Below, one piece after another: positions 8,622-22,000 of a stretch of 24,000 nucleotides of DNA. Location of the stretch: positions 77,916 to 101,915 of the forward strand of contig DBFJJS010000013.1 in assembly GCA_048393055.1 (NCBI GenBank), read 5' to 3'. Positions within the stretch are counted from its first letter, which is position 1. Each line of letters opens with the position of its first letter. This DNA is from Candidatus Faeciplasma sp. Its GTDB lineage: Bacteria > Bacillota > Clostridia > Oscillospirales > Ruminococcaceae. The position numbers were made by a program, and so were the translations under genes. Under the pieces are notes generated by a model, which was given only the letters and a program-made list of their open reading frames with translations, was not told where the DNA came from and did no database searches.

Positions 8622-9539
8622 TCAGCTTATTTTTGCAACGTCGTAAGGCGTCGTCTGATATACAAAGTAATTGAGCCAGTTTGAGTACAGAAGATTCGCG
8701 TGCGCCCTCCAGCTCACAACCGGGGTTTTCGTATCGTCGTCGTCAGGAAAATAATTTACCGGCACGGCTATATCCAGCCCCTTGGCCTTATCCCTGAAAT
8801 ACTCCTTTGCCAGGGTGTCGCGGTCGTACTCCGAGTGTCCGGTTATAAATATCTGCTTACCCTCGTTTGTCATGCACGCGTATACTCCAGCCTCCCTGCT
8901 TGTAGCGAGTATTTTAAGCTCCGAAACTGCTTCGACGTCCTTTATATCAACCGTAGAATTTCTTGAGTGCGGAGCTAAGAACACATCGTCAAAGCCCCTG
9001 AAAAGTATCGGGTTTTTGTAATCGACGGTATGCTCGAACACGCCGAAGAGCTTTTTGGGCAAAAGCTTTTTCTTTATTCCGAAGTGATAGTAAAGCCCCG
9101 CCTGAGCTCCCCAGCAGATGTGAAATGTGGAGTGGACATGGGTCTTGCTCCACTCAAAAATCTCGCACAGCTCGTCCCAATACTCCACATCCTCGAACTC
9201 AAGGTGCTCCACCGGCGCGCCGGTCACTATCATTCCGTCAAACCGCTGGTCTTTAATATCCTCAAAGGTCTTGTAAAACGCAAACAAATGCTCGGCGGAG
9301 GTGTTCTTTGAAAGATGGCTGACAGTGTGCATAAGCTCCATCTCCACCTGAAGAGGGGTGTTTCCCAAAAGCCTTGCAAGCTGCGTCTCAGTCTCCACCT
9401 TGGTAGGCATAAGGTTTAGTATCAGTATTCTCAACGGACGTATATCCTGCGTCATAGCGCGCGTTTCGGTCATCACGAAGATGTTTTCAGAGGCGAGCGT
9501 CTTGGCCGCCGGAAGCGAGTTTGGTATTTTAATCGGCAT
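8622..9539 (-). CDS. metA: Homoserine O-acyltransferase MetA (probably O-acetyl, given the adjacent metY)
   Basis: [11 protein letters not shown]...[15 protein letters not shown] and the [11 protein letters not shown] catalytic-Cys region are typical of the family. Confidence 0.9.
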
Positions 9540-9590
9540 TGACCGTTTTCCTTTCTTTACAGTATGCAGCGCCGCGTTGGATATCTGCCG

Positions 9591-10868
9591 TCAAACAGAC
9601 TCGAGCGCCTGTTTTAAATCTTCGATAAGGTCCTGCGCGTTTTCAATTCCGCATGACAGCCTTACAAGGTCTCCCGAAACCCCGGCAGCCTTAAGCTCCT
9701 CGTCGTTCATCTGTCTGTGGGTGGCGCTTGCGGGATGCAGGCAGCAGGTTCTGGCGTCCGCAACGTGCGTTTCTATCGCGCAGAGCCTAAGGCGCTTCAT
9801 AAAGTCTTCGGCAGCCTTTCTCCCGCCCTTTACGCCGAAGCTGACTACCCCGCATGAGCCGTTCGGAAGATACTTGCGGCACAGCTCGTGGTCTATATTG
9901 CCCTCGAGATCGGGATAGAACACCCAGCTCACCTTATCGCTTGACTCAAGGAATTTCGCGACCGCCATGGCGTTCTCACAGTGGCGCGCCATTCTTACAT
10001 GAAGGCTTTCAAGACCGATATTGAGAAGATACGCGCTGAACGGCGATTGTGCAGACCCGAAATCCCTCATAAGCTGAGCCGTTGCCTTCGTTATATACGC
10101 GCCCTCGCTGCCGAATCGCTCGGCATAGGTTATGCCGTGATAGCTTTCGTCAGGGGTTGTAAGACCGGGGAATTTGTCCGCATGAGCCATCCAGTCAAAC
10201 TTTCCGGAGTCTACAATGCACCCGCCGACGCATGAGCCGTGACCGTCCATATATTTTGTAGTAGAGTGGGTGACAATGTCCGCTCCCCACTCGAACGGGC
10301 GGCAGTTTACAGGCGTTGCGAAAGTGTTGTCAACGATAAGCGGAACTCCGTGGCGATGAGCGGCTGAGGCAAATTTTTCTATATCGAGCACTCTGAGCGC
10401 AGGGTTCGCAATAGTCTCTCCGAAAACAGCCTTTGTATTCGGCTTAAACGCCGCGTCCAGCTCCTCGGGAGTGCAGTCGGGGGCTACGAATGTAAAATCA
10501 ATGCCCATCTTCTTCATCGTAACGGCAAAGAGATTGAATGTCCCGCCATATATAGAAGCCTCCGCAACGACGTGGTCGCCGCAGTTCGCAATGTTAAACA
10601 CCGCAAAGAAGTTTGCCGCCTGTCCAGAGGAGGTGAGCATGGCAGCTGTTCCGCCCTCCAGCTCGCATATCTTCTTTGCAACCATATCGCAGGTCGGGTT
10701 TTGAAGCCGCGAATAAAAATATCCCGAGGCTTCAAGGTCAAAAAGCCTGCCCATATCCTCGCTGGTATCGTATTTAAATGTTGTGGACTGAATAATCGGT
10801 ATCTGCCTCGGCTCGCCGTTTGAGGGGGTATATCCCCCCTGAACGCATTTTGTTTCAATTCTGCTCAT
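9591..10868 (-). CDS. metY: O-acetylhomoserine sulfhydrylase (PLP-dependent Cys/Met metabolism family)
   Basis: The 425-aa product has TSSGQAA and the PLP-lysine motif HSTTKYMDGHG. The C-terminal LRLSCGIE is typical of MetY/CysD. Confidence 0.9.
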   Translation of the reverse strand: MSRIETKCVQGGYTPSNGEPRQIPIIQSTTFKYDTSEDMGRLFDLEASGYFYSRLQNPTCDMVAKKICELEGGTAAMLTSSGQAANFFAVFNIANCGDHVVAEASIYGGTFNLFAVTMKKMGIDFTFVAPDCTPEELDAAFKPNTKAVFGETIANPALRVLDIEKFASAAHRHGVPLIVDNTFATPVNCRPFEWGADIVTHSTTKYMDGHGSCVGGCIVDSGKFDWMAHADKFPGLTTPDESYHGITYAERFGSEGAYITKATAQLMRDFGSAQSPFSAYLLNIGLESLHVRMARHCENAMAVAKFLESSDKVSWVFYPDLEGNIDHELCRKYLPNGSCGVVSFGVKGGRKAAEDFMKRLRLCAIETHVADARTCCLHPASATHRQMNDEELKAAGVSGDLVRLSCGIENAQDLIEDLKQALESV

Positions 10869-10955
10869 ATATCATGCAAGGTCCGGCAGGAACAACCAAA
10901 CGGGAATTCGCGCCGGACCGTTTCCTTTCTTTAATTTTGTCAATCGGTTTTAAGC

Positions 10956-12023
10956 TTATACAGTCTGTCTCCAGCCCATCGTGTCCGGGCGCTTGCCCCA
11001 CTGGATTCCGGTCAGCTCGTCGTAAAGCCTTTGAGTAAGCTCGCCTATTTTGCCTTCGCCTATAACGAACACCTCATTCTTGTAGCGAAGCTTTCCGACG
11101 GGAGAAACAACCGCCGCAGTTCCGGTTCCGAACACCTCTTCGAGTGTACCGTTGTGCGCGGCTTCTATAAGCTCGTCTACCGAAACCTTCCTCTCCTCTA
11201 CGTCATAGCCCCACTTTCTGCAAAGGGCAAGCACAGAGTCCCTTGTGATCCCGGGGAGAATAGAGCCGTTGAGCATCGGGGTTACTACCTTGCCGGCAAT
11301 TTTAAACACTATGTTCATCGCGCCGACCTCTTCAATGTACTTTCTTTCGACGCCGTCCAGCCACAGCACCTGAGAATAGCCGTCGTCATGCGCCTTTACC
11401 TGCGCCGCAAGCGACGCGGCATAGTTTCCGCCGGTCTTGGCAAAGCCGATTCCTCCCCTGACCGCTCTTACATACTCGTCCTCTATCCATATGCCAACCG
11501 GGGCAAGGCCGCTCTCATAATAAGCGCCGGAGGGAGAAAGTATAATCATGAACAGATAGCTCTTAGAGGGGGCTACGCCTAAGTGCTCGTCTGTCGCAAT
11601 GACAAACGGTCTTATGTAAAGCGAAGTTCCCGGCTCGTCCGGTATCCAGTCCCTGTCTACGTCCACTACCGCCTTGACAGCCTGAACAAAATCGTCCTCA
11701 GGTATCCTGGGTATGCAAAGCCTGTCGTTGGAATTGTTGGCGCGCTTTGCGTTCATGTCGGGTCTGAAAAGATATACCTCGCCGTTATCTCCCTTATACG
11801 CCTTTAGGCCCTCGAACATTGTCTGCCCGTAGTGGAAAACCATTGCGGCGGGTGAAAGAGAAATGTTCTGGAACGGCACTATTCTCGCATCGTGCCAGCC
11901 CTGTCCCTCGTCATAGTTCATGATGAACATGTGGTCGGTAAATATGTGACCGAACCCGAGCTTTTCTCCCTTTTGGGGCTTTGTTTTGGGATTTTGAGTC
12001 TTTTCTATCCTGATATTAAGCAT
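10956..12023 (-). CDS. ilvE: Branched-chain amino acid aminotransferase (class IV)
   Basis: FGHIFTDHMF, YGQTMFEGLKAYK, IRPF and GGNYAASL are family motifs. I place the start at the ATG at 12023 (AGGAG 9 nt upstream). The track start at 12032 is a TTG inside the spacer. Confidence 0.9.
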   Translation of the reverse strand: MLNIRIEKTQNPKTKPQKGEKLGFGHIFTDHMFIMNYDEGQGWHDARIVPFQNISLSPAAMVFHYGQTMFEGLKAYKGDNGEVYLFRPDMNAKRANNSNDRLCIPRIPEDDFVQAVKAVVDVDRDWIPDEPGTSLYIRPFVIATDEHLGVAPSKSYLFMIILSPSGAYYESGLAPVGIWIEDEYVRAVRGGIGFAKTGGNYAASLAAQVKAHDDGYSQVLWLDGVERKYIEEVGAMNIVFKIAGKVVTPMLNGSILPGITRDSVLALCRKWGYDVEERKVSVDELIEAAHNGTLEEVFGTGTAAVVSPVGKLRYKNEVFVIGEGKIGELTQRLYDELTGIQWGKRPDTMGWRQTV

Positions 12024-12042
12024 GTTAATCAACTCCTACCGA

Positions 12043-12582
12043 TTATTTGTCGTAGCGATAGCCTGTCTCAAGCGCGGAAAGATTCAGCTTAAGCATGTCT
12101 GCATGTTTAGCGGAAACAACCTTCTCAAGCGCCTTTTCCACATCCTCAAAACTTACGACGTTGGTCTCTCTTATTATTTTACCCATCATTATCATATTTG
12201 CAAGAGTAGGAATTCCCGAATCAGAGGCAAGCCTTGTCGCAGGGATGTAATAGGTGGCAACGTCCTGCCTTGCGACCTTCCTGTCGATAAGCGCGGAATC
12301 GACAAATATTTTTGCCCCGCTGACTGCGTCATTTTCGTACTTGTCAAGCGACGGAAGATTCATTACGGCAAGTATGTCCGGGTTGGAAACTATCGGAGAG
12401 CCTACCGGAGTGTCCGAAATAATTACTGAGCAGTTGGCGGTGCCGCCTCTCATCTCCGGACCGTACGACGGAAGCCAGCTTATCTCCCTGCCCTCGAGCA
12501 GCCCCTTATACGCCAAAAACTTTCCCGCAAACAGTATTCCCTGTCCGCCGAAGCCGGCTATGAGTATCTGTGTATATGCCAT
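12043..12582 (-). CDS. 2-oxoacid:ferredoxin oxidoreductase, gamma subunit
   Basis: The start ILIAGFGGQGILFAGK...EMRGGTANCSV is typical of the POR/VOR/KOR gamma domain. AAGGAGGA SD; the start is 1 nt after the beta stop. Confidence 0.85.
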   Translation of the reverse strand: MAYTQILIAGFGGQGILFAGKFLAYKGLLEGREISWLPSYGPEMRGGTANCSVIISDTPVGSPIVSNPDILAVMNLPSLDKYENDAVSGAKIFVDSALIDRKVARQDVATYYIPATRLASDSGIPTLANMIMMGKIIRETNVVSFEDVEKALEKVVSAKHADMLKLNLSALETGYRYDK

Positions 12583-12583
12583 A

Positions 12584-13336
12584 TCATCTATCCTCCTTGC
12601 CGGCCGACCTGTCCTTGTAAACGCCGAGCGGGTAGTATGGGATCATATTTGTCTCGACCCATTCCATCGCCTTAGACGGCGTCATGCCCCAGTTTGTCGG
12701 GCAGGTGGACAGTACCTCCACAAGTGAGAAGCCCCTGCCGTTTATCTGGTTCTCAAAAGCCTTTTTGATAGCCTTTTTCGCTGTCATGACGTTTTTAACG
12801 TTATTTACCGCTACTCTCTGGATAAATTCCGGACCATCCAGCGCGGAAAGCAGCTCGCTCACCTTTATCGGGTATCCCACGGTTTTTACATCTCTGCCGT
12901 AGGGAGAGGTCTGTGTGACCTGACCGGGAAGAGAGGTCGGAGCCATCTGCCCGCCGGTCATGCCGTATATCGCGTTGTTTATAAAAATAACCGTTATATT
13001 TTCGTTTCTTGTAGCCGCATGAACGGTTTCAGCCATACCTATCGAGGCGAGGTCGCCGTCGCCCTGATAAGTGAAAACAATGTTCTGTGGCATCGCCCTT
13101 TTAAGTCCCGTTGCGACCGCAGGCGCTCTTCCGTGAGCAGCCTCGACCATGTCGCAGGAGAAATAGTTATATGCCATTACCGCGCAGCCCACGGGAGCTA
13201 CTCCGACGGTGTCCCCCAATATTCCAAGCTCGTCTATAGCCTCAGCCACAAGACGGTGAACAATGCCGTGCGTACAGCCCGGGCAGTAGTGGAGCGGCGC
13301 GTCGGTAAGCGCCTTCGGCTTTTCAAAAACTACCAT
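12584..13336 (-). CDS. 2-oxoacid:ferredoxin oxidoreductase, beta (TPP-binding) subunit
   Basis: HYCPGCTHG cysteine motif and GDGD...NNAIYGMTGGQ TPP motif. Its start overlaps the alpha stop (TGATG). Confidence 0.9.
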   Translation of the reverse strand: MVVFEKPKALTDAPLHYCPGCTHGIVHRLVAEAIDELGILGDTVGVAPVGCAVMAYNYFSCDMVEAAHGRAPAVATGLKRAMPQNIVFTYQGDGDLASIGMAETVHAATRNENITVIFINNAIYGMTGGQMAPTSLPGQVTQTSPYGRDVKTVGYPIKVSELLSALDGPEFIQRVAVNNVKNVMTAKKAIKKAFENQINGRGFSLVEVLSTCPTNWGMTPSKAMEWVETNMIPYYPLGVYKDRSAGKEDR

Positions 13337-14397
13337 CAGTTTTCGCCTCCCATCAAATCGTCAAGCGTTTTAAGTATCTCGCCCGGGTCGGGGATCATTC
13401 CGCCCACTCTCGAGCACAGCGCTACCGGCTTCCTGCATTCCTCCGAAAGCCTTATATCCTCTATCATCTGCCCCATCGACAGCTCCACCGAAATAAACGC
13501 CTTGACCCTGTCCGCGGCGGACGCTATCGCCTTCTTGGGGAAGGGCCACAGCGTAATCGGTCTTATCATGCCTATTTTTATACCCCTTGCGCGGGCCGCT
13601 GTGATAGCGTTCTTCGCAACGCGCGCTGCTATTCCGAACGCAACGACGCAATACTCGGCGTCGTCCATGAGATACTCCTCGTACATTACCTCGTTTTCCT
13701 CTACGAGCTTGTATCTTTCATATCTCTCGAGGTTTTTCCTTTCAAGCTCCTCAGGCACAAGATACAGCGAGTTTACGATATTGTGCTCGCGCCTGCCCTT
13801 TGTTCCTGTTACCGCCCACGGCTTTTCCACGACGGACTCAGTAGGCTCGGGCAAAACTACCGGCTCCATCATCTGACCCATCGTTCCGTCTGCAAGTATC
13901 ATCGCGGGGATGCGGTATTTATCCGAAAGATTAAACGCCTTAGCGGTAAAATCAGCCATTTCCTGAACCGACGCCGGAGCTAATACTATCAGATGATAGT
14001 CTCCATGCCCGCCGCCCTTTGTCGCCTGGAAATAATCCGACTGAGAGGGCTGAATGCCTCCGAGCCCCGGACCGCCTCTTTGCACGTTTACAATGAGCGC
14101 AGGAAGGTCCGAGCCGGCAAGATAGGATATTCCCTCCTGCTTGAGCGAAACTCCGGGGCTTGAGGATGAGGTCATAGCCCTCAGGCCCGCGCTCGAAACA
14201 CCGTAAATCATATTTATCGCAGCTATTTCGCTTTCCGCCTGCAAAAACGTTCCGCCTATCTTGGGCATTCTCTTCGCCATATATGCCGCCACCTCTGTCT
14301 GAGGCGTTATAGGGTATCCGAAATAATGGCGGCAGCCCGCTCTTATGGCAGCCTCCGCTATCGCTTCGTTGCCCTTCATAAGTACCTTTTCAGCCAT
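13336..14397 (-). CDS. 2-oxoacid:ferredoxin oxidoreductase, alpha subunit (VorB/KorA-like)
   Basis: MKGNEAIAEAAIRAGCRHYFGYPITPQTE and QAESEIAAINMIYG. I prefer the ATG at 14397 (AAAGGA 9 nt upstream) over the TTG at 14415. Confidence 0.9.
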   Translation of the reverse strand: MAEKVLMKGNEAIAEAAIRAGCRHYFGYPITPQTEVAAYMAKRMPKIGGTFLQAESEIAAINMIYGVSSAGLRAMTSSSSPGVSLKQEGISYLAGSDLPALIVNVQRGGPGLGGIQPSQSDYFQATKGGGHGDYHLIVLAPASVQEMADFTAKAFNLSDKYRIPAMILADGTMGQMMEPVVLPEPTESVVEKPWAVTGTKGRREHNIVNSLYLVPEELERKNLERYERYKLVEENEVMYEEYLMDDAEYCVVAFGIAARVAKNAITAARARGIKIGMIRPITLWPFPKKAIASAADRVKAFISVELSMGQMIEDIRLSEECRKPVALCSRVGGMIPDPGEILKTLDDLMGGEN

Positions 14398-14417
14398 ATC
14401 ATCCCGTCCTTTCAAAG

Positions 14418-14624
14418 CTATTTTTCAACTGTTATAACGCAGTCGGGGCACATTGTAGCGCAGAACGCGCAGCCTATGCACTTGGACTGGTCGGTTATCT
14501 GTGCAGGAGAATGGCCCTTTTTATTGAGCTTATCCTTGGCGATTGCGATAATTTTCTTTGGACATGCGTCTACGCAAAGACCGCAGCCCTTGCACAGGTC
14601 CTCTTTAAAAGTTACCTTCGGCAT
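14418..14624 (-). CDS. 2x[4Fe-4S] ferredoxin-like delta subunit
   Basis: The 68-aa product has CKGCGLCVDACP and CIGCAFCATMCP. AAGGAGATG is the SD. Confidence 0.85.
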   Translation of the reverse strand: MPKVTFKEDLCKGCGLCVDACPKKIIAIAKDKLNKKGHSPAQITDQSKCIGCAFCATMCPDCVITVEK

Positions 14625-14636
14625 TAAAACATCTCC

Positions 14637-15302
14637 TTAATTTATATCAAAATATCTTTTCTGAAGCGTAAGGGGGAAAACATCCGTCATCTTAAGGCGG
14701 CTCGCGACCTGTCTCTCCACAGATGTAAAAAGTATGGGCAGCCCCGAAAGCTCTGAAAGCATCTGCGCCTCGTGACGGCTGTTTAAAACCGTTTCGACCG
14801 TAGTCTCCCGCCCGAGGTTTGTATTATTTACAACGGCTGTAAACGGCAATCCCGCCGCAGGCTCTATTTCGCGCATGACCTCGAGCGCCTCCCCTGCAGT
14901 TCGGGTAAGCGGACGGCAGAAATTCGCCACGAATATCATCTCGTAATCGTTTTCCTCTAAAATATACGGTGCGAACCTCCCAAGGGCATACGCTCCCCTG
15001 TCGTCTCCGCCTATGTCCAGAACGGCGTGCCTTGAGCGGTTCTGAACTACTCCGTACAGCTCGGACGGCAGCGCCGGAAGGTCTACGTTTGAGTTCGCAA
15101 ACTCGGGCGAAATAATGTCTATTCCGAGCTTTGACATCTCACGCGCGCTGTCCTTTGTCCTGAAATACGGATTTACAATGTCAAGGTCTGCTATCACCAC
15201 ATCCCTGCCCTCGCGCTTAAGATACGCGGCGTAATTGACTGCTATATTGGTTTTTCCGCTTCCGTAATGACCTGCAAGAAGCGTCACTCTCTTTACTCTC
15301 AT
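14637..15302 (-). CDS. P-loop NTPase (SIMIBI-like, MinD/CooC-related fold), function unknown; first gene of the oxidoreductase operon
   Basis: Walker A LLAGHYGSGKT sits at the extreme N-terminus and a Walker-B-like VLDIGGDD follows. There are no TM segments or other domains. Its stop lies 12 nt before the delta subunit start. Confidence 0.7.
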   Translation of the reverse strand: MRVKRVTLLAGHYGSGKTNIAVNYAAYLKREGRDVVIADLDIVNPYFRTKDSAREMSKLGIDIISPEFANSNVDLPALPSELYGVVQNRSRHAVLDIGGDDRGAYALGRFAPYILEENDYEMIFVANFCRPLTRTAGEALEVMREIEPAAGLPFTAVVNNTNLGRETTVETVLNSRHEAQMLSELSGLPILFTSVERQVASRLKMTDVFPLTLQKRYFDIN

Positions 15303-15496
15303 TTACTGCGGATTTCTCCTCAATCTCCATTATGCAAATCCGCCCCAAAGACGCAATATCCTCGAGGCGGAAAATTCTCCAAAGCACCGTATGACTGCAC
15401 CGCGCCGCCCGACCTGTACGGGTCCGCGGCAATTTGTATAGATAGATAATACCGATACGGACAGTTTCCGTCTATGCTTTTATACTTTACAGTGGT

Positions 15497-15525
15497 ATTT
15501 TAGCACACCCCGTCTTAAATGTCAA
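15497..15525 (-). promoter_or_regulatory. Strong sigma-A promoter for the NTPase-oxidoreductase-ilvE operon
   Basis: Minus strand reads TTGACA (15520-15525), 17-nt spacer, TGc-TAAAAT (15497-15502). A leader of about 190 nt follows. Confidence 0.6.
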
Positions 15526-15558
15526 CAATTTCGACGTGTTAAATTTGTACAAATTGCC

Positions 15559-17829
15559 TTACAGCTCGTTGCGCTTAATCTTTCCGCTGATGGTCTTGGG
15601 AAGCTCGTCGCGGAATTCGATAATTCTGGGATACTTATAAGGAGCAGTGTGGCTTTTTACATAAGCCTGTATCTCCTTTTTCAGCTCCTCGCTGGGCGTT
15701 GTTCCCTTTGTAAGGACTATTGCAGCCTTAACCACCTGACCTCTTATCTCGTCGGGCGCTCCGCATACTCCGCATTCCAAAATATACGGCAGCTCCATGA
15801 GCACGCTTTCAATCTCAAACGGACCTATCCTGTAGCCTGACGACTTGATAACATCGTCGATTCTCGAAACATAGTAGAAGTAGCCGTCCTCATCGCGCCA
15901 TGCCGTGTCGCAGGTGTGATACATTCCGTCGTGCCATACCTCAGAGGTTTTTTCAGGGTCGTTATAGTACTCCTTGAACAGCCCGCACGGCACTCCCTTA
16001 TCTGTGCGGATGACTATTTCTCCTACCTCGCCCGCGCCGCAGGACCTTCCCTCGCTGTCAACGATATCGACGTCGAACTGCGGGGTGGGCTTGCCCATCG
16101 AGCCGAGCTTCGGAGCCGTTCCGTTGAGGTTGGCGATGATAAGGGTGGTCTCCGTCTGACCGAAGCCCTCCATGATCTCAAGCCCTGTGCTCTCGGCAAA
16201 CTGCTTTGAAACCTCCGGGTTTAAAGCCTCTCCGGCGGTAGTCATATTTTTTATGGAGGACAAATCGTACTTTGAAAGGTCCTCTTTAATCATCATTCTG
16301 AGCATTGTGGGAGGCGCGCAGAAGGTGGTTATATTGTACTTTGCAAACATGGGAAGGATATCGTGAGCGTCGAATTTATCAAAATCGTATACAAATACCG
16401 CGCCCTCGCAAAGCCACTGACCATAGAGCTTGCCCCACAGCGACTTTCCCCAGCCTGTATCGGAAATCGTAAGGTGAAGCCCGTCCCTCTGGCAGCAGTG
16501 CCAGTACTTCGCGGTCACATAATGACCCAGCGCATAGGTGTGCGCATGCTCCGCCATCTTGGGATTTCCGGTTGTTCCCGAGGTGAAGAACATCAGCGCG
16601 GCGTCCGAGCCGCAGGAGCAGTCGCCGGGACGCTCAAACTTACCCGTAAAGAGCGAATACTCGCTGTTAAAATCATGCCAGCCCTCGCGAGCCCCGTTCA
16701 CCATTATAAGCTGCTTTACGCTCGGGCACTTTTTCGCCGCCCTTTGCGCAATTTCGGCAGTATCTCCGTCCGCTGTGCAGACCAGCGCGGAAACTCCGGC
16801 GGCGTTGAAGCGGTATTCAAAGTCATGCTCCTTGAGCTGATTTGTTGCGGGGATGGCAATTGCCCCGAGCTTGTGAAGCGCTATCATGCAGAACCAGAAC
16901 TGATAATGCCTCTTTAAAACGAGCATTACGCGGTCGCCCTTCTTTATGCCGAGCGATTTAAAATAATTAGCCGTCTGATTGGACGCGCGCTTTATATCCT
17001 TAAAGGTAAATCTTCTTTCCTCATGGTTTTTGCTGATATGAAGCATAGCCAGCTTGTCGGGGTATTTGTCCGCGATGGCGTCTACAATGTCAAACCCGAA
17101 ATTAAAGGTCTCGGTATTTTTAAAATGGATTTTCTTGAGATGACCGTGCTCATCCTCGACCGCGTCTATAAACTTTTCGCAGCATATGAGCTTTTCGGAC
17201 CTGCCCGCCTGTATAACGTTTTCACGGACTACCTCCTCCTTGGTCTCCTCGCCTGGAAGCACTACGGCAACAAAGGTGCAGTCCGTTCCGTCTACAGCTA
17301 TCATGCCGTGAGGAGTAGCTGAATTGTAGTAAATGCTGTCACCCTCGTGCAGAACCTCAGTGTGCTCGCCGACCTGAACCTTCAGGCTTCCGCTTATGAC
17401 AAGGTCAAATTCCTGCCCGCTGTGCGTTGTAAGGTGGATAGGCTGGTTCTGCTGCGCCGCCGAATACTCGTATTTGACCCAGTACGGCTCCGCAATCTTG
17501 CCCTTAAACTTGGGCGCAAGGTTGGAGATGTCTATTCCCTGCTCCTTCGCCGTCTTTTGACCCATTCCCTTTCTGGTCACTGTATATGAGGTTAGCCTTT
17601 GCTCGTTGTTTCCCTCGATAAGGTCGGTAAGGTCTATGTCGAACGCGAGCGCGCATTTATGTATGAACGTAAACGGCAGGTCTGCCTCGGCAGCCTCGTA
17701 TTTAAGATACTCCTGCTCGCTCACCTCTGTTTTTTCCGCCATCTGCCTGGGCGTCCAGCCCATGATCTCGCGCATGCCCCTGATACGGGTCGCAATATCA
17801 ACCAGTCTTGTCTGCGAATTTGTCGCCAT
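15559..17829 (-). CDS. Fusion protein: XRE-family HTH + cupin + AMP-forming (medium/short-chain) acyl-CoA synthetase
   Basis: One uninterrupted ORF. The ATG at 17829 has AAAGGAAG 7 nt upstream; the track start at 17847 lies inside that SD. HTH is about aa 9-71 (17617-17805). Cupin is about aa 105-191 (17257-17517), with THSGQEFDLVISG and GDSIYYNSATPHG. The adenylate-forming domain is about aa 215-756 (15562-17187), with FFTSGTTGNPK, GFGQTETT, YHTCDTAWRDEDGYFYYVSRIDDVIKSSGYRIGPFEIES and PKTISGKIKR. Confidence 0.85.
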   Translation of the reverse strand: MATNSQTRLVDIATRIRGMREIMGWTPRQMAEKTEVSEQEYLKYEAAEADLPFTFIHKCALAFDIDLTDLIEGNNEQRLTSYTVTRKGMGQKTAKEQGIDISNLAPKFKGKIAEPYWVKYEYSAAQQNQPIHLTTHSGQEFDLVISGSLKVQVGEHTEVLHEGDSIYYNSATPHGMIAVDGTDCTFVAVVLPGEETKEEVVRENVIQAGRSEKLICCEKFIDAVEDEHGHLKKIHFKNTETFNFGFDIVDAIADKYPDKLAMLHISKNHEERRFTFKDIKRASNQTANYFKSLGIKKGDRVMLVLKRHYQFWFCMIALHKLGAIAIPATNQLKEHDFEYRFNAAGVSALVCTADGDTAEIAQRAAKKCPSVKQLIMVNGAREGWHDFNSEYSLFTGKFERPGDCSCGSDAALMFFTSGTTGNPKMAEHAHTYALGHYVTAKYWHCCQRDGLHLTISDTGWGKSLWGKLYGQWLCEGAVFVYDFDKFDAHDILPMFAKYNITTFCAPPTMLRMMIKEDLSKYDLSSIKNMTTAGEALNPEVSKQFAESTGLEIMEGFGQTETTLIIANLNGTAPKLGSMGKPTPQFDVDIVDSEGRSCGAGEVGEIVIRTDKGVPCGLFKEYYNDPEKTSEVWHDGMYHTCDTAWRDEDGYFYYVSRIDDVIKSSGYRIGPFEIESVLMELPYILECGVCGAPDEIRGQVVKAAIVLTKGTTPSEELKKEIQAYVKSHTAPYKYPRIIEFRDELPKTISGKIKRNEL

Positions 17830-17849
17830 GGTGCATCTTCCTTTCAAAT

Positions 17850-18155
17850 ATCACATAAAATCGCAACAAAAAGGCCCGTCTCAAATCCAAACGCCTGTGT
17901 TGCGTTCAAATACTTGAGACGAGCCGAATATTTTGACCCGCGGTACCACTCAAATTGCGCTAAAAAGCGCCGCTCAGACTCTAACAAGCCTTATACATTA
18001 ACGCAGTAATCACGTAAGACGCCTACCCGCCCGAGGGCGATCGGATCTTATGCTCGGAAGTGATGGGATTATCTTAACATCTGCCGGCTTCCACCATTTC
18101 CGGCTCGCTGAAAAATGCCGCTCAAGATTCTCCGTCTTCGTCATCGCATTTATTG
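17850..18155 (-). promoter_or_regulatory. T-box riboswitch leader, apparent specifier AUC (isoleucine)
   Basis: On the minus strand the Stem I base is GCGAUGACGAAG...CUUCCGAGCA (K-turn/GA motif). There is an AG bulge AGCGAG and a distal loop UGGUGGAA. The specifier position reads CCC-AUC-A-CUUCCGAGCA (codon at 18062-18064). Stem III is GCGCUUUUUAGCGC. The T-box motif AAUUUGAGUGGUACCGCGG lies at 17938-17956, with UGGU matching an A73 discriminator. A terminator/antiterminator alternative follows. Confidence 0.85.
17865..17925 (-). terminator. T-box terminator hairpin
   Basis: Minus-strand RNA reads GGCUCGUCUCAAGUAUUUGAACGC-AACACAG-GCGUUUGGAUUUGAGACGGGCC followed by UUUUU. Its 5' arm (CUCAAG) can also pair with UUGAG in the T-box motif to form the antiterminator. 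Confidence 0.8.
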
Positions 18156-18161
18156 TTCACA

Positions 18162-18190
18162 ATTATAGCATTGTGTTTTTTGATTGTCAA
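18162..18190 (-). promoter_or_regulatory. Perfect-consensus sigma-A promoter driving the T-box leader
   Basis: Minus strand reads TTGACA (18185-18190), 17-nt spacer, TGc-TATAAT (18162-18167). Confidence 0.7.
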
Positions 18191-18219: not shown

Positions 18220-19056
18220 TTAGTACGGCAGTGCTGTGCAGTTTTCACGCTGCTCCAATCCCAGCCTGAATATCCTGTTTGCATTTTTAAAAAATATAAG
18301 CTCCAGCTCTTCCTCCGTCAGGCCAAGGCTGCGAACCCTTTCGATCTCTTTGACGGGATTCCACATCGGAAAGTCCGTGCCGAAAAGCACACGCCCCGCG
18401 CCGTAGCTGCGGATTATCTCGACGGCCCTTTGAGGCGCCATTGCATACAGGCTTGAAGAGCAGTCCACATAAAAATTGTCATACCCGCAAAGGCGGCTGC
18501 ACGCCTCGTCCCACACCGAATATCCGCCAAGGTGCGCACCTATGACAGTAAGGTTCTTAAATATCTCCACCACAGGCTGAAGGCGGTTGGGGTTTGACAT
18601 ATCAAACCTTGAATCGCCAGCGTGCACAAGGACAGGCAGACCGTTTTGCTCACACAACTCATATATTTTAAGGCAGCGGTAATCGTCAAGCTTAAAGCCC
18701 TGTATGTCCGGGTGGAGCTTTACCCCCTTGAGCCCAAGCTCAATAAGGCGGCTCACATCGCCCCGTATGTCCGGGCTGTTTGGATGAAGCGTGCCCAGCC
18801 CCGCGAAAAAACCGCTGTCCGATTCTGCGGTAGAGGCGATAAACTCGTTTATCGAGCTTGTCTGAGACGGCTTTGTGGCGACGGAAAATATAATCGCTTT
18901 CGTTATTCCCGCCTGAGATGCAAGAGTTTTTACCGTACTCACCCTTCCGTCGTACCTGACCGGCATATTATAAAATCTGCTTATGCCGTCGGACGCCTTT
19001 TGGGCTATGCTGTCAGGGTACACATGGCAGTGACAGTCGACAATAATGCTTTTCAT
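18220..19056 (-). CDS. Metal-dependent TIM-barrel hydrolase (amidohydrolase_2-like)
   Basis: MKSIIVDCHCHVYP supplies the HxH metal ligands, with VKLHP, VLVHAG and LFGTDFP also present. I prefer the ATG at 19056, 14 nt after the GH115 stop. The track start at 19092 would overlap GH115. Confidence 0.8.
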   Translation of the reverse strand: MKSIIVDCHCHVYPDSIAQKASDGISRFYNMPVRYDGRVSTVKTLASQAGITKAIIFSVATKPSQTSSINEFIASTAESDSGFFAGLGTLHPNSPDIRGDVSRLIELGLKGVKLHPDIQGFKLDDYRCLKIYELCEQNGLPVLVHAGDSRFDMSNPNRLQPVVEIFKNLTVIGAHLGGYSVWDEACSRLCGYDNFYVDCSSSLYAMAPQRAVEIIRSYGAGRVLFGTDFPMWNPVKEIERVRSLGLTEEELELIFFKNANRIFRLGLEQRENCTALPY

Positions 19057-19070
19057 ATGGTTTTGCGCCT

Positions 19071-22000
19071 TCAATCGTTTACAATGAGCCACGGAGCGTC
19101 CTTTTGCACAGGCTCTCCCATGAAGCTGTCGTATGTCGGCTTGGGACCGATAAGAGACGGCTCGAGCTTAAGGCTTGAATCCATGATTACAAGCTTTTGC
19201 ACCACCGCGTTCTGGTCCATGCCCCACAGCCTGAGGGTATGGCAGCCCTTTGAAAGGCTCAGCGTTGTCTGCGCGCGCCTGCCGCCCTGCTCGATTGTCG
19301 CGTACCAGCTTCCGCTGACGCCGGAAATATATCCCTCGCCCTGAACGTTGAGCGCGTCTATTTCCCCACCGTCGAGCTGCACGCCGACGTTCAGGTGAGT
19401 TCCGTTGTCAAAGGAGACATTGTTGCCCTGACCGACGTACAAAATAAGATTGTAATCGCCGTCCTTCGGGATTACCATATTGTAATCCACCCACGGTCCT
19501 TTTCCCGCTTTAAAAGGCTCGGTGCAGGTTTTGAGCATCTTAAGAGAAGCCCTTGATTTGCCGTAGCCCTCGAGGACTGTCCAGCTTACGCCGCAGCTTT
19601 CCGATTTGGCGGCATATCCGTCCGCCCGTACACACATTATGCCGTTTGACATAAAGTGAGCTTTGTCCCTGCCGGCAGCGTGAACGTCAACAAGCTTGAC
19701 GTTAAACCTGATGTCCACCCGTTTGTCTGACGAACGCACTATAATAGTGCCGGATGTGTTCTCCCTGACGCGGCTCCAGTCTATTTTTACCGCAAAGCTC
19801 TTCGCGGCAAGGCACTCGCCCTTCGTTTCGCCGTCTATTATAACAAAGTCCTCGAACGCCTCGACGGTATACTCAAACGGCTTATCCGAGCCGTTGGTTA
19901 TGTTTACGACATACGCCTGCTTTTCGCTCGACTCAAAGTCGGGAAGTAAAACCTCTCCGTCCAAAACGCCTTCCGCAATCCCCGGCACATCGACGATAAG
20001 CCTTGGGTTCTTACACGGCTCGATGCGCTTTGGCACAAGCTTTATTGCGGACTGACCGTTCCAGCTCGAATAGTTCATATGCGCCTGGGCGGTGACTCGA
20101 CCGAGTATCGGGTCGGTATACTGCTTGCAGTAGTCTGGCGACGCGATCATCATGCCGTACCACTTGTTCACGCCGTTTAAGCTTTCACCCATGGCGTTAT
20201 ACCTGTCGGTAAGCTCTTCGTCGAGCGCCAGATACCGCTCCACAAGCCCGGCATAGGTGTTTGCAAGGACAGAGCCTCTTTGAGCGTAAAGCTCGTTAAG
20301 ACCAAACATTATCTGTATCCTTACGACGTTAGCGGAAGCCACCGCCGGGTAATATACAAGCTGATAAAACTGCTCGTACCGGCAGGAGTTCTCGCCTATT
20401 TTTTCTGCAATTGCGTCGCAGCGGGAAATTATGCTTTCACAGAGCTTCAGGCGGTCCGCCGCGTCATCGTAGTTTAAAATGCTGTAGCTGCAGTCGCCGG
20501 AGCTTTTAAGCGTTTCCGGCTTGCATACTCCGTTGAGCCAGGTGTAATCGTCCAAAATCGAGCATATTGCGTCCATATCGGAATCATCAAGCTTAGATTC
20601 CGCGCCGAACTGGCTTCTCACCCATTCACTCACGTACTTTTCGGTGTTATTGGGATTTGAAATTCCGTATTTCTCAAAATCATAGGCAAGGTCCATAAAG
20701 TAACTGAGCGGCAGCTCCATCGGTCTTAGGTCTCCGACGTTTACTATCCACGCGTCGTCAACGCCGTACTCATAAGCCTGCGTAAGATTCTCCCATGAGC
20801 GCTGAAGCGGCATGGTGTTTATCCACATCGAGGTCTTCGGGCTTCCAACGTAGTCAAAGTGATAATAAAGTCCCCAGTTGTACTCGTTTTGCTGACCGAG
20901 CTCCGGCAGCGTGCGCAAATAGCCGTTGTTGTCCTCGCAGAGCATTACTATCCTGTTTGTCTGAGCGCCCAAAAGCCCCGCGACCTCCGGGTCGTCCCTG
21001 AGGCCGTTGCCCTTCGCCGCCTCGGGGTTTGCCCTTGAACCTCCGTACCAGCAGTTTTCAACCTCCTTGTACACAGCCAGAAGAAGCGGAGTGTCCTCAA
21101 GCCCGTGCTCGCCCAAAATCCTGTACTGCGTCCTTAAAACCGCCTTCAAAAGCTCGATATTGTCCTTAGTATCAAGGCTTTTGCCCTTTGCGTCTATAAG
21201 GACGGAGTCGTTCTCGCCCCTCATTCCTATTGTCAGAAGGTTATTAAAGCCCCCGTTGCGGTACACGGCGTCGCTCCAGAATGCCTCGATATTATTCGGA
21301 TTTAAAAGGTAATTCCACAGCTTCTGACCCTCGTCTGTTGGTATGGACGGGTCTCGGTAGGTTATTTTATCGCTCCAATAGCCCTGGAGCATTCCCCATT
21401 CGCCGCCGCTTCTTGCCATAGGCTCATGGTGGGAAGCGCCGACCGTTATGCCGTATCTGTCCGCCAAAACCGCATTGGCAAGCGTCATCGGATATTCCCC
21501 CGGCTTTAAATAGCCGGTTTTGTTCCCTTTGCCGTCGGTAACCGGCACATCTATCGGAGCGTTTTCATTTCCGGGCTGATCGCGGTACATAAGTCCGCCG
21601 AGCTTATAGTGATATTTTTTCTCAAGCTCGCAGAACCTGTCCGAATCTCCCACTCCCTCCATGCCGTCGCAGCTGAAGTTGTTCGACCACATCGCGGGCC
21701 ACATATAGTTTCCCTTCAGCCTGAGTATCAGCTTGAATATCTCGTCGTAGAACATATAATTGAGTCCGCCGAAATGGCTGTCGGCAAAGCCGTTTAAGCA
21801 GGGGTTCTCGTCGTTCATGAAGAAGCCTCTGAAGTTTACCGACGGTCTTTTAGAAACGCATTCCAGCTCGCTTATGCCCGCCTCGAGCTTATCGGTTTTT
21901 TTCGGCTTGATATCAGCCCACCATATCCAGGGGCTGACGCCGAATATGTCCTGAGTTATATGGAAAAGTCCATAATATACTCCCCTTTTATCAGAGCCGG

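Follow-up and report, generated by a model that had tools for sequence, protein, structure and literature searches.

A gene cluster with a T-box-led acyl-CoA ligase, predicted to turn branched short-chain fatty acids into branched-chain amino acids in Candidatus Faeciplasma and its relatives

Introduction

For many fibre-degrading anaerobes of the rumen and gut, isobutyrate, 2-methylbutyrate and isovalerate are required or stimulatory, an effect that has been explained since the 1960s by the reductive carboxylation of these acids to valine, isoleucine and leucine. Rumen bacteria and methanogens are both able to make isoleucine, valine and leucine from branched acids, and Allison and co-workers reportedly demonstrated in rumen bacteria that 2-methylbutyrate, isobutyrate and isovalerate are carboxylated reductively to the respective amino acids. 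In the literature that we searched, no dedicated gene set or regulation has been assigned to branched-acid carboxylation in Firmicutes. Which genes could carry out this conversion in a gut Clostridium, and what would control them, is the question raised by a gene cluster on the minus strand (positions 10956-18190) of a 24,000-nucleotide (nt) stretch of DNA from Candidatus Faeciplasma sp. (assembly GCA_048393055.1, contig DBFJJS010000013.1), the whole of which we call the window. The cluster comprises a T-box riboswitch leader and the genes for an AMP-forming acyl-CoA ligase, a P-loop nucleoside triphosphatase (NTPase), a four-subunit 2-oxoacid:ferredoxin oxidoreductase and the aminotransferase IlvE, and a first-pass annotation, made from the DNA letters, had read it as a dedicated salvage cluster. 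All the sequence-level tests that we ran, mainly a comparison of 80 related loci, favoured this proposal, and we consider it likely that the cluster is a salvage route by which a branched short-chain fatty acid (2-methylbutyrate) would be converted to a branched-chain amino acid (isoleucine).

Locus organization and the T-box leader

The genes of the cluster are all collinear on the minus strand, and they and their signals were found where the first-pass annotation had placed them (Table 1). Its intergenic distances also match the open reading frame coordinates exactly (NTPase-12 nt-delta-20 nt-alpha-1 nt overlap-beta-1 nt-gamma-19 nt-ilvE, computed with ATG starts at 14397 for alpha and 12023 for ilvE). 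The consensus promoter that it reported ahead of the T-box (P1) and the second strong promoter ahead of the packed operon (P2) are both borne out, each with an upstream TG. A promoter similar to P1 precedes each orthologous T-box leader in the 80 loci. P2, by comparison, is kept in the closest relative (locus L003) and is missing from most relatives, in which the NTPase gene lies directly 3' of a ligase gene of a second, Val class (see below) with a gap of less than 30 nt. A search of the minus strand between the ligase and NTPase genes gave no terminator-like site, in agreement with the earlier statement that no terminator follows the ligase.

The leader upstream of the ligase gene matches Rfam model RF00230 at 18153-17912, over the full model (positions 1-219), with an E-value of 7.2e-20 and a score of 88.5 bits; the T-box is therefore recovered at full length and with a convincing E-value, although its score stays under the gathering score of 93 bits and so misses the membership cut-off. 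The score falls short by little, and it is the E-value that decides the identity of the leader as a T-box. It was detected only under E-value thresholds, and a default Rfam scan of the window is empty because the score lies below the gathering threshold. In an Rfam cross-check of three loci the orthologous leaders scored 79-121 bits against RF00230, some of them above the cut-off, and since several score 79-90 bits, as the window leader does, standard annotation pipelines will miss the whole leader group.

Stem I contains a GCGAUGA...GAGC kink-turn (K-turn), a GAAG/CUUC base helix and the AUC-A specifier with a purine after the codon, and its distal AG-bulge and loop motifs are CAGCGAG and UGGUGGAA. 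The specifier column is kept across 99 aligned leaders, and the AUC reading, backed by this alignment, agrees with the Ile-type specifier of the first-pass annotation. The UGGU bulge of the T-box motif is compatible with the tRNA discriminator base A73, and the 5' strand of the terminator overlaps the 3' side of the antiterminator, which makes the two folds mutually exclusive. T-boxes induce expression upon uncharged cognate tRNA, and from these features we infer that the leader is switched by uncharged tRNA-Ile. Rfam searches over the entire window identified no S-adenosylmethionine (SAM) riboswitch and no second T-box.

Table 1. Features of the cluster and its surroundings. Positions are those of the window, except in the last three rows, which use the coordinates of the named related loci; aa, amino acids.
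Feature	Position	Strand	Description or evidence
Promoter P1	18162..18190	-	TTGACA-17-TATAAT, extended -10 TG, 12/12 consensus matches (sigma-70)
T-box leader	17868..18153	-	Stem I with K-turn, specifier loop, Stem II/IIA-B, Stem III, T-box motif, terminator, U-run
Specifier codon AUC (Ile)	18062..18064	-	Loop ...CCC-AUC-A, then CUUC strand of Stem I base helix
T-box motif AAUUUGAGUGGUACCGCG	17939-17956	-	Carries UGGN bulge
Terminator hairpin GGCUCGUCUCAA...UUGAGACGGGCC + UUUUU	17873-17925	-	-43.9 kcal/mol, z -4.08
Helix-turn-helix (HTH)-cupin-acyl-CoA ligase fusion, Ile class, 756 aa, putative 2-methylbutyrate--CoA ligase	15559..17829	-	Pfam, NCBIfam, PDB 3ETC
Ligase, HTH domain	~17602-17796	-	
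Ligase, cupin domain	~17263-17430	-	
Ligase, AMP-binding and C-terminal domains	~15580-17076	-	
Perfect 12-nt palindrome ATTTGTACAAAT	15543..15554	-	5 nt past ligase stop, ~18 nt upstream of P2 -35
Promoter P2, serving NTPase-oxidoreductase-ilvE	15497..15525	-	TTGACA-17-TAAAAT, TG, 11/12
Hairpin CCGCCUCGAGGA...UCUUUGGGGCGG in P2 5' untranslated region (UTR)	15340..15370	-	Kept in L003, there with U-richer tail
P-loop NTPase, SIMIBI class, 221 aa	14637..15302	-	Walker A GHYGSGKT; AlphaFold 2 (AF2) model and Foldseek
Oxidoreductase delta, 68 aa, 2x[4Fe-4S] ferredoxin	14418..14624	-	Pfam Fer4; two CxxCxxCxxxCP motifs
Oxidoreductase alpha, 353 aa, VorB-type	13336..14397	-	YPITP motif; NCBIfam NF005507; Pfam POR_N + PFOR_II
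Oxidoreductase beta, 250 aa, TPP-binding	12584..13336	-	Pfam TPP_enzyme_C; GDG...NN; cluster Cys 18, 21, 51, 212
Oxidoreductase gamma, 179 aa	12043..12582	-	Pfam POR
ilvE, branched-chain amino acid aminotransferase, class IV type II	10956..12023	-	NCBIfam
metY (O-acetylhomoserine sulfhydrylase) and metA	8622-10955	-	Follow ilvE after 87-nt gap
Amidohydro_2 gene	18220-19092	-	Directly upstream of P1
GH115 alpha-glucuronidase, 1091 aa	19071-22346	-	22-nt overlap with amidohydrolase start
Leu module, locus L042	391-4578	-	
Leu module, locus L004	2351-7320	+	
Leu module, locus L005	1-4695	+	

Conservation of the cluster and two ligase classes

Searching a single genome from each species with an alignment of the NTPase, we identified at least 594 stretches encoding a relative and analysed the 80 best loci; these come from Oscillospiraceae, Acutalibacteraceae, Faecousia, Christensenellaceae, other Clostridia and two spirochaete metagenome-assembled genomes (MAGs). 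Counting only loci with enough flank, a complete vorDABC set is present in 57/57 loci with the NTPase gene directly upstream of vorD in every one (57/57), a gene for the HTH-cupin-ligase precedes these genes in the same orientation in 64/65, and in 35/45 the cluster includes ilvE, placed either behind gamma or ahead of the NTPase gene. The neighbourhood of ligase, NTPase, four subunits and ilvE whose co-occurrence the first-pass annotation had left to be surveyed is thus strongly conserved. The number of ligase genes varies, with two in tandem in 36 of 55 loci and one in 18.

Leaders were located by nhmmer in all loci and aligned, and the specifier was read at the aligned position. It is ATC in 53 leaders, GTA or GTC in 42 and CTG, CTC or CTT (Leu codons) in about 20, which stand at the opposite side of the island, and as the variation is limited to synonymous codons the reading register is fixed. 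By sequence the ligases, in turn, form two clusters and no more, and these agree with the specifier: one holds the 52 ligases behind Ile (AUC) T-boxes (52/52) together with the window ligase, while all 41 T-box-led members of the other stand behind Val (GUA/GUC) T-boxes (41/41), this second cluster also holding nine second-position copies without a leader of their own. The usual layout is a promoter, Ile T-box and Ile-class ligase, followed by a promoter, Val T-box and Val-class ligase that continues into NTPase-vorDABC(-ilvE) with gaps of less than 30 nt. This pairing of specifier and paralog is hard to explain unless the two ligases feed isoleucine and valine synthesis, and among the sequence comparisons it is the strongest evidence for the salvage reading. 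It is the arrangement expected of a salvage route and fits poorly with a catabolic role or an unrelated substrate.

Judged by this layout, the Val unit was lost from the window and L003, or was never there, and P2 stands in its place. The 256-nt gap between the ligase and NTPase genes was examined for remains of a Val T-box or of a ligase gene, and this possibility was rejected: neither nhmmer with the leader nor Rfam gave a match there, and what the gap contains is the promoter, a palindrome and a hairpin, shared only with L003.

Variant wiring was seen in seven loci (L009, L022, L065, L069, L072, L074 and L081), where a Val-class ligase gene lies ~100 nt after the Ile-class gene without its own T-box, so that both would be under the Ile T-box. 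The two spirochaete MAGs, both from rumen samples (L064, Sphaerochaetaceae; L079, Spirochaetales), have the order Ile T-box-ligase-ilvE-NTPase-vorDABC, and their NTPases are 61-65% identical to the Clostridia versions, which suggests either horizontal transfer or an error in binning.

Predicted specificity of the ligase

The first-pass annotation of an AMP-forming acyl-CoA ligase holds for the catalytic part, which matches PF00501 (AMP-binding, E-value 1.6e-66) and PF13193 (AMP-binding_C, 1.6e-21), but it missed an N-terminal HTH-cupin fusion that is considered in the next section. The best NCBIfam model is that for Staphylococcus aureus MbcS, with 440.7 bits, which misses the equivalog cut-off of 850, and the ligase is by this measure a relative rather than an ortholog of MbcS. 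The top solved relative of the ligase domain is MacsMa of Methanosarcina acetivorans (PDB 3ETC), with an E-value of 4e-194 and 54% identity over 522 columns, and the preferred substrate of MacsMa is 2-methylbutyrate (PMC10455477). All three proteins are AMP-forming ligases of the ANL family. The window ligase differs from MacsMa and MbcS in its extra N-terminal module of ~215 aa and in belonging to a type whose two paralog classes go with Ile and Val T-boxes, respectively.

MacsMa and the window ligase also share pocket markers. In an alignment with MacsMa, the ligase motif EGFGQTE places a Gly at the position of Acs Trp416, and its AKYW motif (W443) aligns with AKYW of MacsMa, the equivalent of Trp259; the roles of the Acs Trp416 position and of Macs Trp259 in the pocket are those described in PMC10455477. 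With the Acs Trp replaced by Gly and the Macs-specific Trp present, the ligase is not, by its sequence markers, of the acetate type, and the acetate-specific ligase that the first-pass annotation had named as counting against its proposal gives way to a predicted Macs-type pocket. The identity to MacsMa and the specifier of the T-box together suggest a preference for 2-methylbutyrate.

Nine alignment positions discriminate the Ile-class from the Val-class ligases at ≥90%, and only one of them is in the catalytic domain. At this position the Ile class has G459, a Gly that it shares with MacsMa, and the Val class has Ala; the position is located in the SDTGWGK motif two residues ahead of the Acs acyl-pocket positions, and the smaller residue would be paired with the larger predicted acid, as expected. 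For isobutyrate, which the first-pass annotation also offered as a possible substrate, the enzyme is probably not the window ligase but the separate paralog of the Val class, present in relatives and missing from the window.

The HTH-cupin module

The N-terminus of the ligase has an XRE-type HTH (aa 12-76) and a Cupin_2 domain (aa 134-189) ahead of the AMP-binding domains, both of which pass their Pfam cut-offs (HTH_3, 23.5 against 23; Cupin_2, 44.5 against 27.2). The HTH-cupin-ligase architecture is retained in 120/120 homologs listed, and the public annotation of these fusion homologs is only that of an "AMP-binding protein". The other eight positions that discriminate the two ligase classes are located in the HTH and the linker/cupin region (aa 44-115), so that with eight of nine positions in the N-terminal module this module co-varies with amino-acid specificity. 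The HTH-cupin module probably adds a paralog-specific second sensing layer, as a DNA-binding or an allosteric element.

Regulators with an XRE HTH and a cupin (PuuR; PDB 1Y9Q) have, like the window module, a five-helix XRE HTH followed by a Cupin_2 barrel, but in the window the module is fused to an enzyme; HppE and HEPD have the same HTH-like plus cupin arrangement and are enzymes that do not bind DNA. BirA, an adenylate-forming ligase that doubles as a repressor, is a functional analogy. A PDB sequence search with the HTH-cupin module gave no match, while the cupin part matched weakly to the cupin of PuuR. The AF2 model of the module is poor (pLDDT 62, pTM 0.39), and Foldseek matches to this low-confidence model (TM ~0.3) were split between the regulator 1Y9Q, the best match, and the enzymes HppE and HEPD. 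When the sequences ahead of the -35 box in 91 orthologous promoters were searched for a shared operator in the form of an inverted repeat (arms ≥5 nt), none was identified; these sequences are only A/T-rich and UP-like.

In the cupin, residues H136, E140 and H174 are invariant and H132 nearly so (aa 132-174, ~17308-17436). H136, E140 and H174 could be a metal site resembling a 2-His-1-carboxylate arrangement, and such a candidate site is unexpected for a purely regulatory domain.

The oxidoreductase, IlvE and the NTPase

The four adjacent oxidoreductase subunits support the VorDABC-type enzyme of the first-pass annotation as far as alpha is concerned, which scores 553.3 bits against the VorB subfamily model NF005507 (cut-off 399; positions 2-349 of 352) and 250 bits against the model for 2-oxoglutarate synthase alpha (cut-off 579); beta, gamma and delta stay under the cut-offs of their models. 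The closest solved alpha subunits are those of a Pyrococcus 2-ketoacid oxidoreductase and a 2-oxoglutarate synthase. The IlvE assignment is confirmed by two equivalog models for branched-chain aminotransferases, both of whose cut-offs are exceeded (NF009897, 501.3 against 307; TIGR01123, 407.6 against 250).

The NTPase reached no cut-off in Pfam or NCBIfam searches, its scores being low against CbiA (24.6 against 25.4), ParA (20.7 against 27.1) and MrpORP (19 against 450). Its AF2 model (pLDDT 82.7) gave Foldseek matches with a probability of 1.0 to SRP54/FtsY, ATPase-type HypB and Mrp-like AF2382, at TM 0.55-0.6; the structural likeness of the model is at the level of the class only, no close relative having been found. 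Homologs of the NTPase, where annotated at all, are hypothetical proteins of Oscillospiraceae. Among 20 homologs the Walker A motif GHYGSGKT is invariant and there is no conserved Cys, so that the protein should be neither an Fe-S carrier nor an electron-transfer ATPase. Like the SIMIBI maturation NTPases (ATPase-type HypB, CooC and Mrp/NBP35), it is small, has a P-loop SIMIBI fold and is encoded next to a metalloenzyme that it might serve; unlike them, it has neither the deviant Walker A lysine nor a conserved Cys or CxxC. By its position and by analogy to HypB and CooC we tentatively propose, with low confidence, that it could be an assembly or maturation factor of the oxidoreductase.

Proposed pathway and alternatives

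AMP-forming ligases run from acid to acyl-CoA, and 2-oxoacid:ferredoxin oxidoreductases are reversible, with an anabolic VOR being known from Methanothermobacter. Taking this together with the anatomy, family assignments, conservation and specifier-paralog link established above, we predict the following substrates, direction of flux and tRNA response. Uncharged tRNA-Ile(GAU) would pair with the AUC specifier and the UGGU bulge and stabilise the antiterminator, so that transcription from P1 would run into the ligase gene. The ligase would convert 2-methylbutyrate to 2-methylbutyryl-CoA, with ATP going to AMP; the VorB-type oxidoreductase would form 3-methyl-2-oxopentanoate from the acyl-CoA, CO2 and reduced ferredoxin; and IlvE would transaminate this 2-oxoacid to isoleucine. 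The committed, substrate-specific step, that of the ligase, would be the point under tRNA control. In the window the NTPase, oxidoreductase and IlvE would be expressed from P2 and from any read-through of the ligase gene, while in most relatives these shared enzymes would be co-transcribed with the Val-class ligase behind the Val T-box, and in two-ligase genomes the Ile- and Val-specific ligases would feed one oxidoreductase and one transaminase.

Several observations weigh against this salvage route. Direct T-box gating in the window is limited to the ligase: the "tRNA-Ile-controlled cluster" of the first-pass annotation is accurate for the ligase, which stands behind the Ile T-box, but not for the NTPase, oxidoreductase and ilvE genes, which have their own promoter P2 and hence escape strict gating by the T-box. 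Where a genome has two ligases, transcription reading through from the Ile unit would run into the terminator of the Val T-box, so Ile starvation alone may not raise oxidoreductase expression. The leader itself misses the RF00230 gathering score. All the relatives examined are MAGs, and the 80 loci are phylogenetically related, so that counts like 52/52 exaggerate how many independent events they represent. The LeuA-like gene behind a Leu T-box that occurs nearby in relatives means that part of the classical pathway exists there. In addition, alpha is the sole oxidoreductase subunit above a curated VOR-family cut-off, the best NCBIfam models for beta, gamma and delta being 2-oxoglutarate or generic oxidoreductase models, all below cut-off.

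These sub-cut-off matches, along with the identity of the solved alpha relatives, would fit an oxidoreductase of the 2-oxoglutarate or pyruvate type (e.g., for glutamate as amino donor) beside a ligase for another acid, the T-box being real. We regard this as very unlikely, given that alpha passes the VorB model at full length and falls below the 2-oxoglutarate synthase cut-off, that Ile, Val and Leu T-boxes surround the oxidoreductase in relatives, and that the ligase is so similar to MacsMa, whose preference for 2-methylbutyrate is reported in PMC10455477. An alternative use of the ligase product, mainly as a starter for anteiso fatty acids that would spare isoleucine, with the adjacency to the oxidoreductase and ilvE being secondary, is suggested by MbcS being the best NCBIfam match of the ligase, as exogenous acids can enter branched-chain fatty acid synthesis with the help of MbcS (PMC10026030, PMC11167679), and by the window ligase forming its own T-box unit with a promoter between it and the oxidoreductase genes. 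However, the ligase score is 440 bits against the MbcS cut-off of 850, no fatty-acid synthesis gene is within the cluster, the cluster is conserved as a unit, and most relatives have the Val-class ligase in one operon with the NTPase, vorDABC and ilvE (gaps <30 nt); a lipid-primer role is possible for the ligase alone and leaves the co-operonic oxidoreductase and ilvE unexplained, and as an account of the cluster we think it unlikely. As the acyl-CoA is a branch point, lipid and isoleucine uses are not exclusive.

The reverse direction was also considered, in which IlvE and the oxidoreductase would degrade isoleucine, valine and leucine to acyl-CoAs and branched fatty acids for energy; both enzymes are reversible and both serve the fermentation of branched-chain amino acids in other anaerobes. 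We rejected this catabolic reading, which is extremely unlikely, on the logic of the T-box, which turns on under amino-acid scarcity (uncharged cognate tRNA), and on the chemistry of the ligase, since an AMP-forming ligase in effect runs only toward acyl-CoA and the energy of the thioester would be wasted. Moreover, the cluster is without a phosphotransacylase, kinase, ADP-forming synthetase or CoA transferase.

An extension of the salvage reading is more speculative, and we think it doubtful that all of its parts hold jointly. In it, the ligase would be a trigger enzyme whose HTH-cupin module, with a specificity differing between the paralogs, senses the amino acid, the acid or the acyl-adenylate and either represses transcription or shuts off the ligase; the NTPase would be an obligatory partner for the anabolic, carboxylating direction of the VorB-type oxidoreductase; and the whole would form an island for branched-chain amino acid supply with three sensors (Ile, Val and Leu). 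If this were true, HTH-cupin sensing would be a second layer of control above the T-box and, with the Leu module described below, gut and rumen Clostridia would have a three-sensor supply island.

Relation to known systems and significance

The reductive carboxylation of rumen bacteria and methanogens has the same chemistry as that proposed here, from acid to acyl-CoA, 2-oxoacid and amino acid; it was defined by labelling and enzyme assays, whereas the route described here is proposed for Oscillospirales and Christensenellales from genes and their organisation, with a dedicated NTPase and tRNA-based regulation. For methanogens, the use of branched acids for isoleucine and leucine is covered in PMC10658910, citing Whitman 1982 and Shieh 1988. 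The leader has the riboswitch class and logic of the T-boxes that precede other genes for branched-chain amino acids (e.g., ileS, and Bacillus subtilis ilv-leu with its Leu T-box), with which it shares the Stem I specifier, the UGGN bulge reading the acceptor end, the terminator/antiterminator and the predicted induction of a supply gene. It differs from them in its target, a fatty-acid-activating ligase rather than an aminoacyl-tRNA synthetase, de novo enzyme or transporter, and in that a single island in relatives combines T-boxes for Ile, Val and Leu next to one another.

In the T-box survey PMC2494555 we found no branched-acid ligase as a regulon member. The first-pass annotation knew of no description of a tRNA-sensing cluster of this kind, and our search of full-text literature likewise identified no T-box-controlled cluster leading from branched acids to branched-chain amino acids, although the main regulon survey (RNA 2008) is outside its coverage and an earlier mention is possible. 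In the same literature, no HTH-cupin-ligase fusion, T-box-run branched-acid ligase or oxidoreductase-linked NTPase was described. The chemistry is classical and T-boxes are well known, while for the cluster, the T-box control of the ligase, the fusion and the NTPase link we found no earlier description.

The cluster offers candidate genes for branched-acid carboxylation in hundreds of Oscillospirales and Christensenellales species, and since a T-box specifier names the amino acid served it puts a functional label on each ligase. It also offers a testable specificity determinant (G459 versus A459) and two uncharacterised parts, the oxidoreductase-linked NTPase and the HTH-cupin fusion. Recognition of these genes, which are presently annotated as "AMP-binding protein" or "hypothetical protein", would improve predictions of auxotrophy and cross-feeding for gut and rumen metagenomes and has a bearing on the supplementation of branched-chain volatile fatty acids in ruminant nutrition.

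Untranslated region of P2, the Leu module and flanking genes

The palindrome downstream of the ligase gene is partly kept in L003, as TTTTATACAAAT. The 5' UTR of P2 is ~190 nt long, and the region 15303-15558 folds somewhat better than shuffled sequences (z -2.2); Rfam gave no match to the P2 5' UTR region, which is a possible regulatory element for the NTPase-oxidoreductase-ilvE genes.

In relatives, a third module lies next to the Ile unit (Table 1). It has a Leu T-box (CTG/CTC/CTT) followed by the LeuA-like gene (HMGL-like and LeuA_dimer domains), continues with an 820-836-aa fusion of a xylose-isomerase-like TIM barrel to an AMP ligase, and ends with an Amidohydro_2 protein. The window retains only the amidohydrolase of this Leu module.

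On the other side of the cluster, the gap between ilvE and metY contains an 8-bp hairpin (GGTCCGGC...GCCGGACC) and no clear terminator, and Rfam identified no SAM riboswitch or Met T-box near metY-metA. The adjacency of ilvE or gamma to metY-metA recurs in about 10 of the 80 loci (including L003, L004, L005, L008, L010, L027, L030, L034 and L076), and for this reason the genes may be co-transcribed. Beyond the amidohydrolase gene, the GH115 alpha-glucuronidase is consistent with a xylan-degrading, fibre-associated host.

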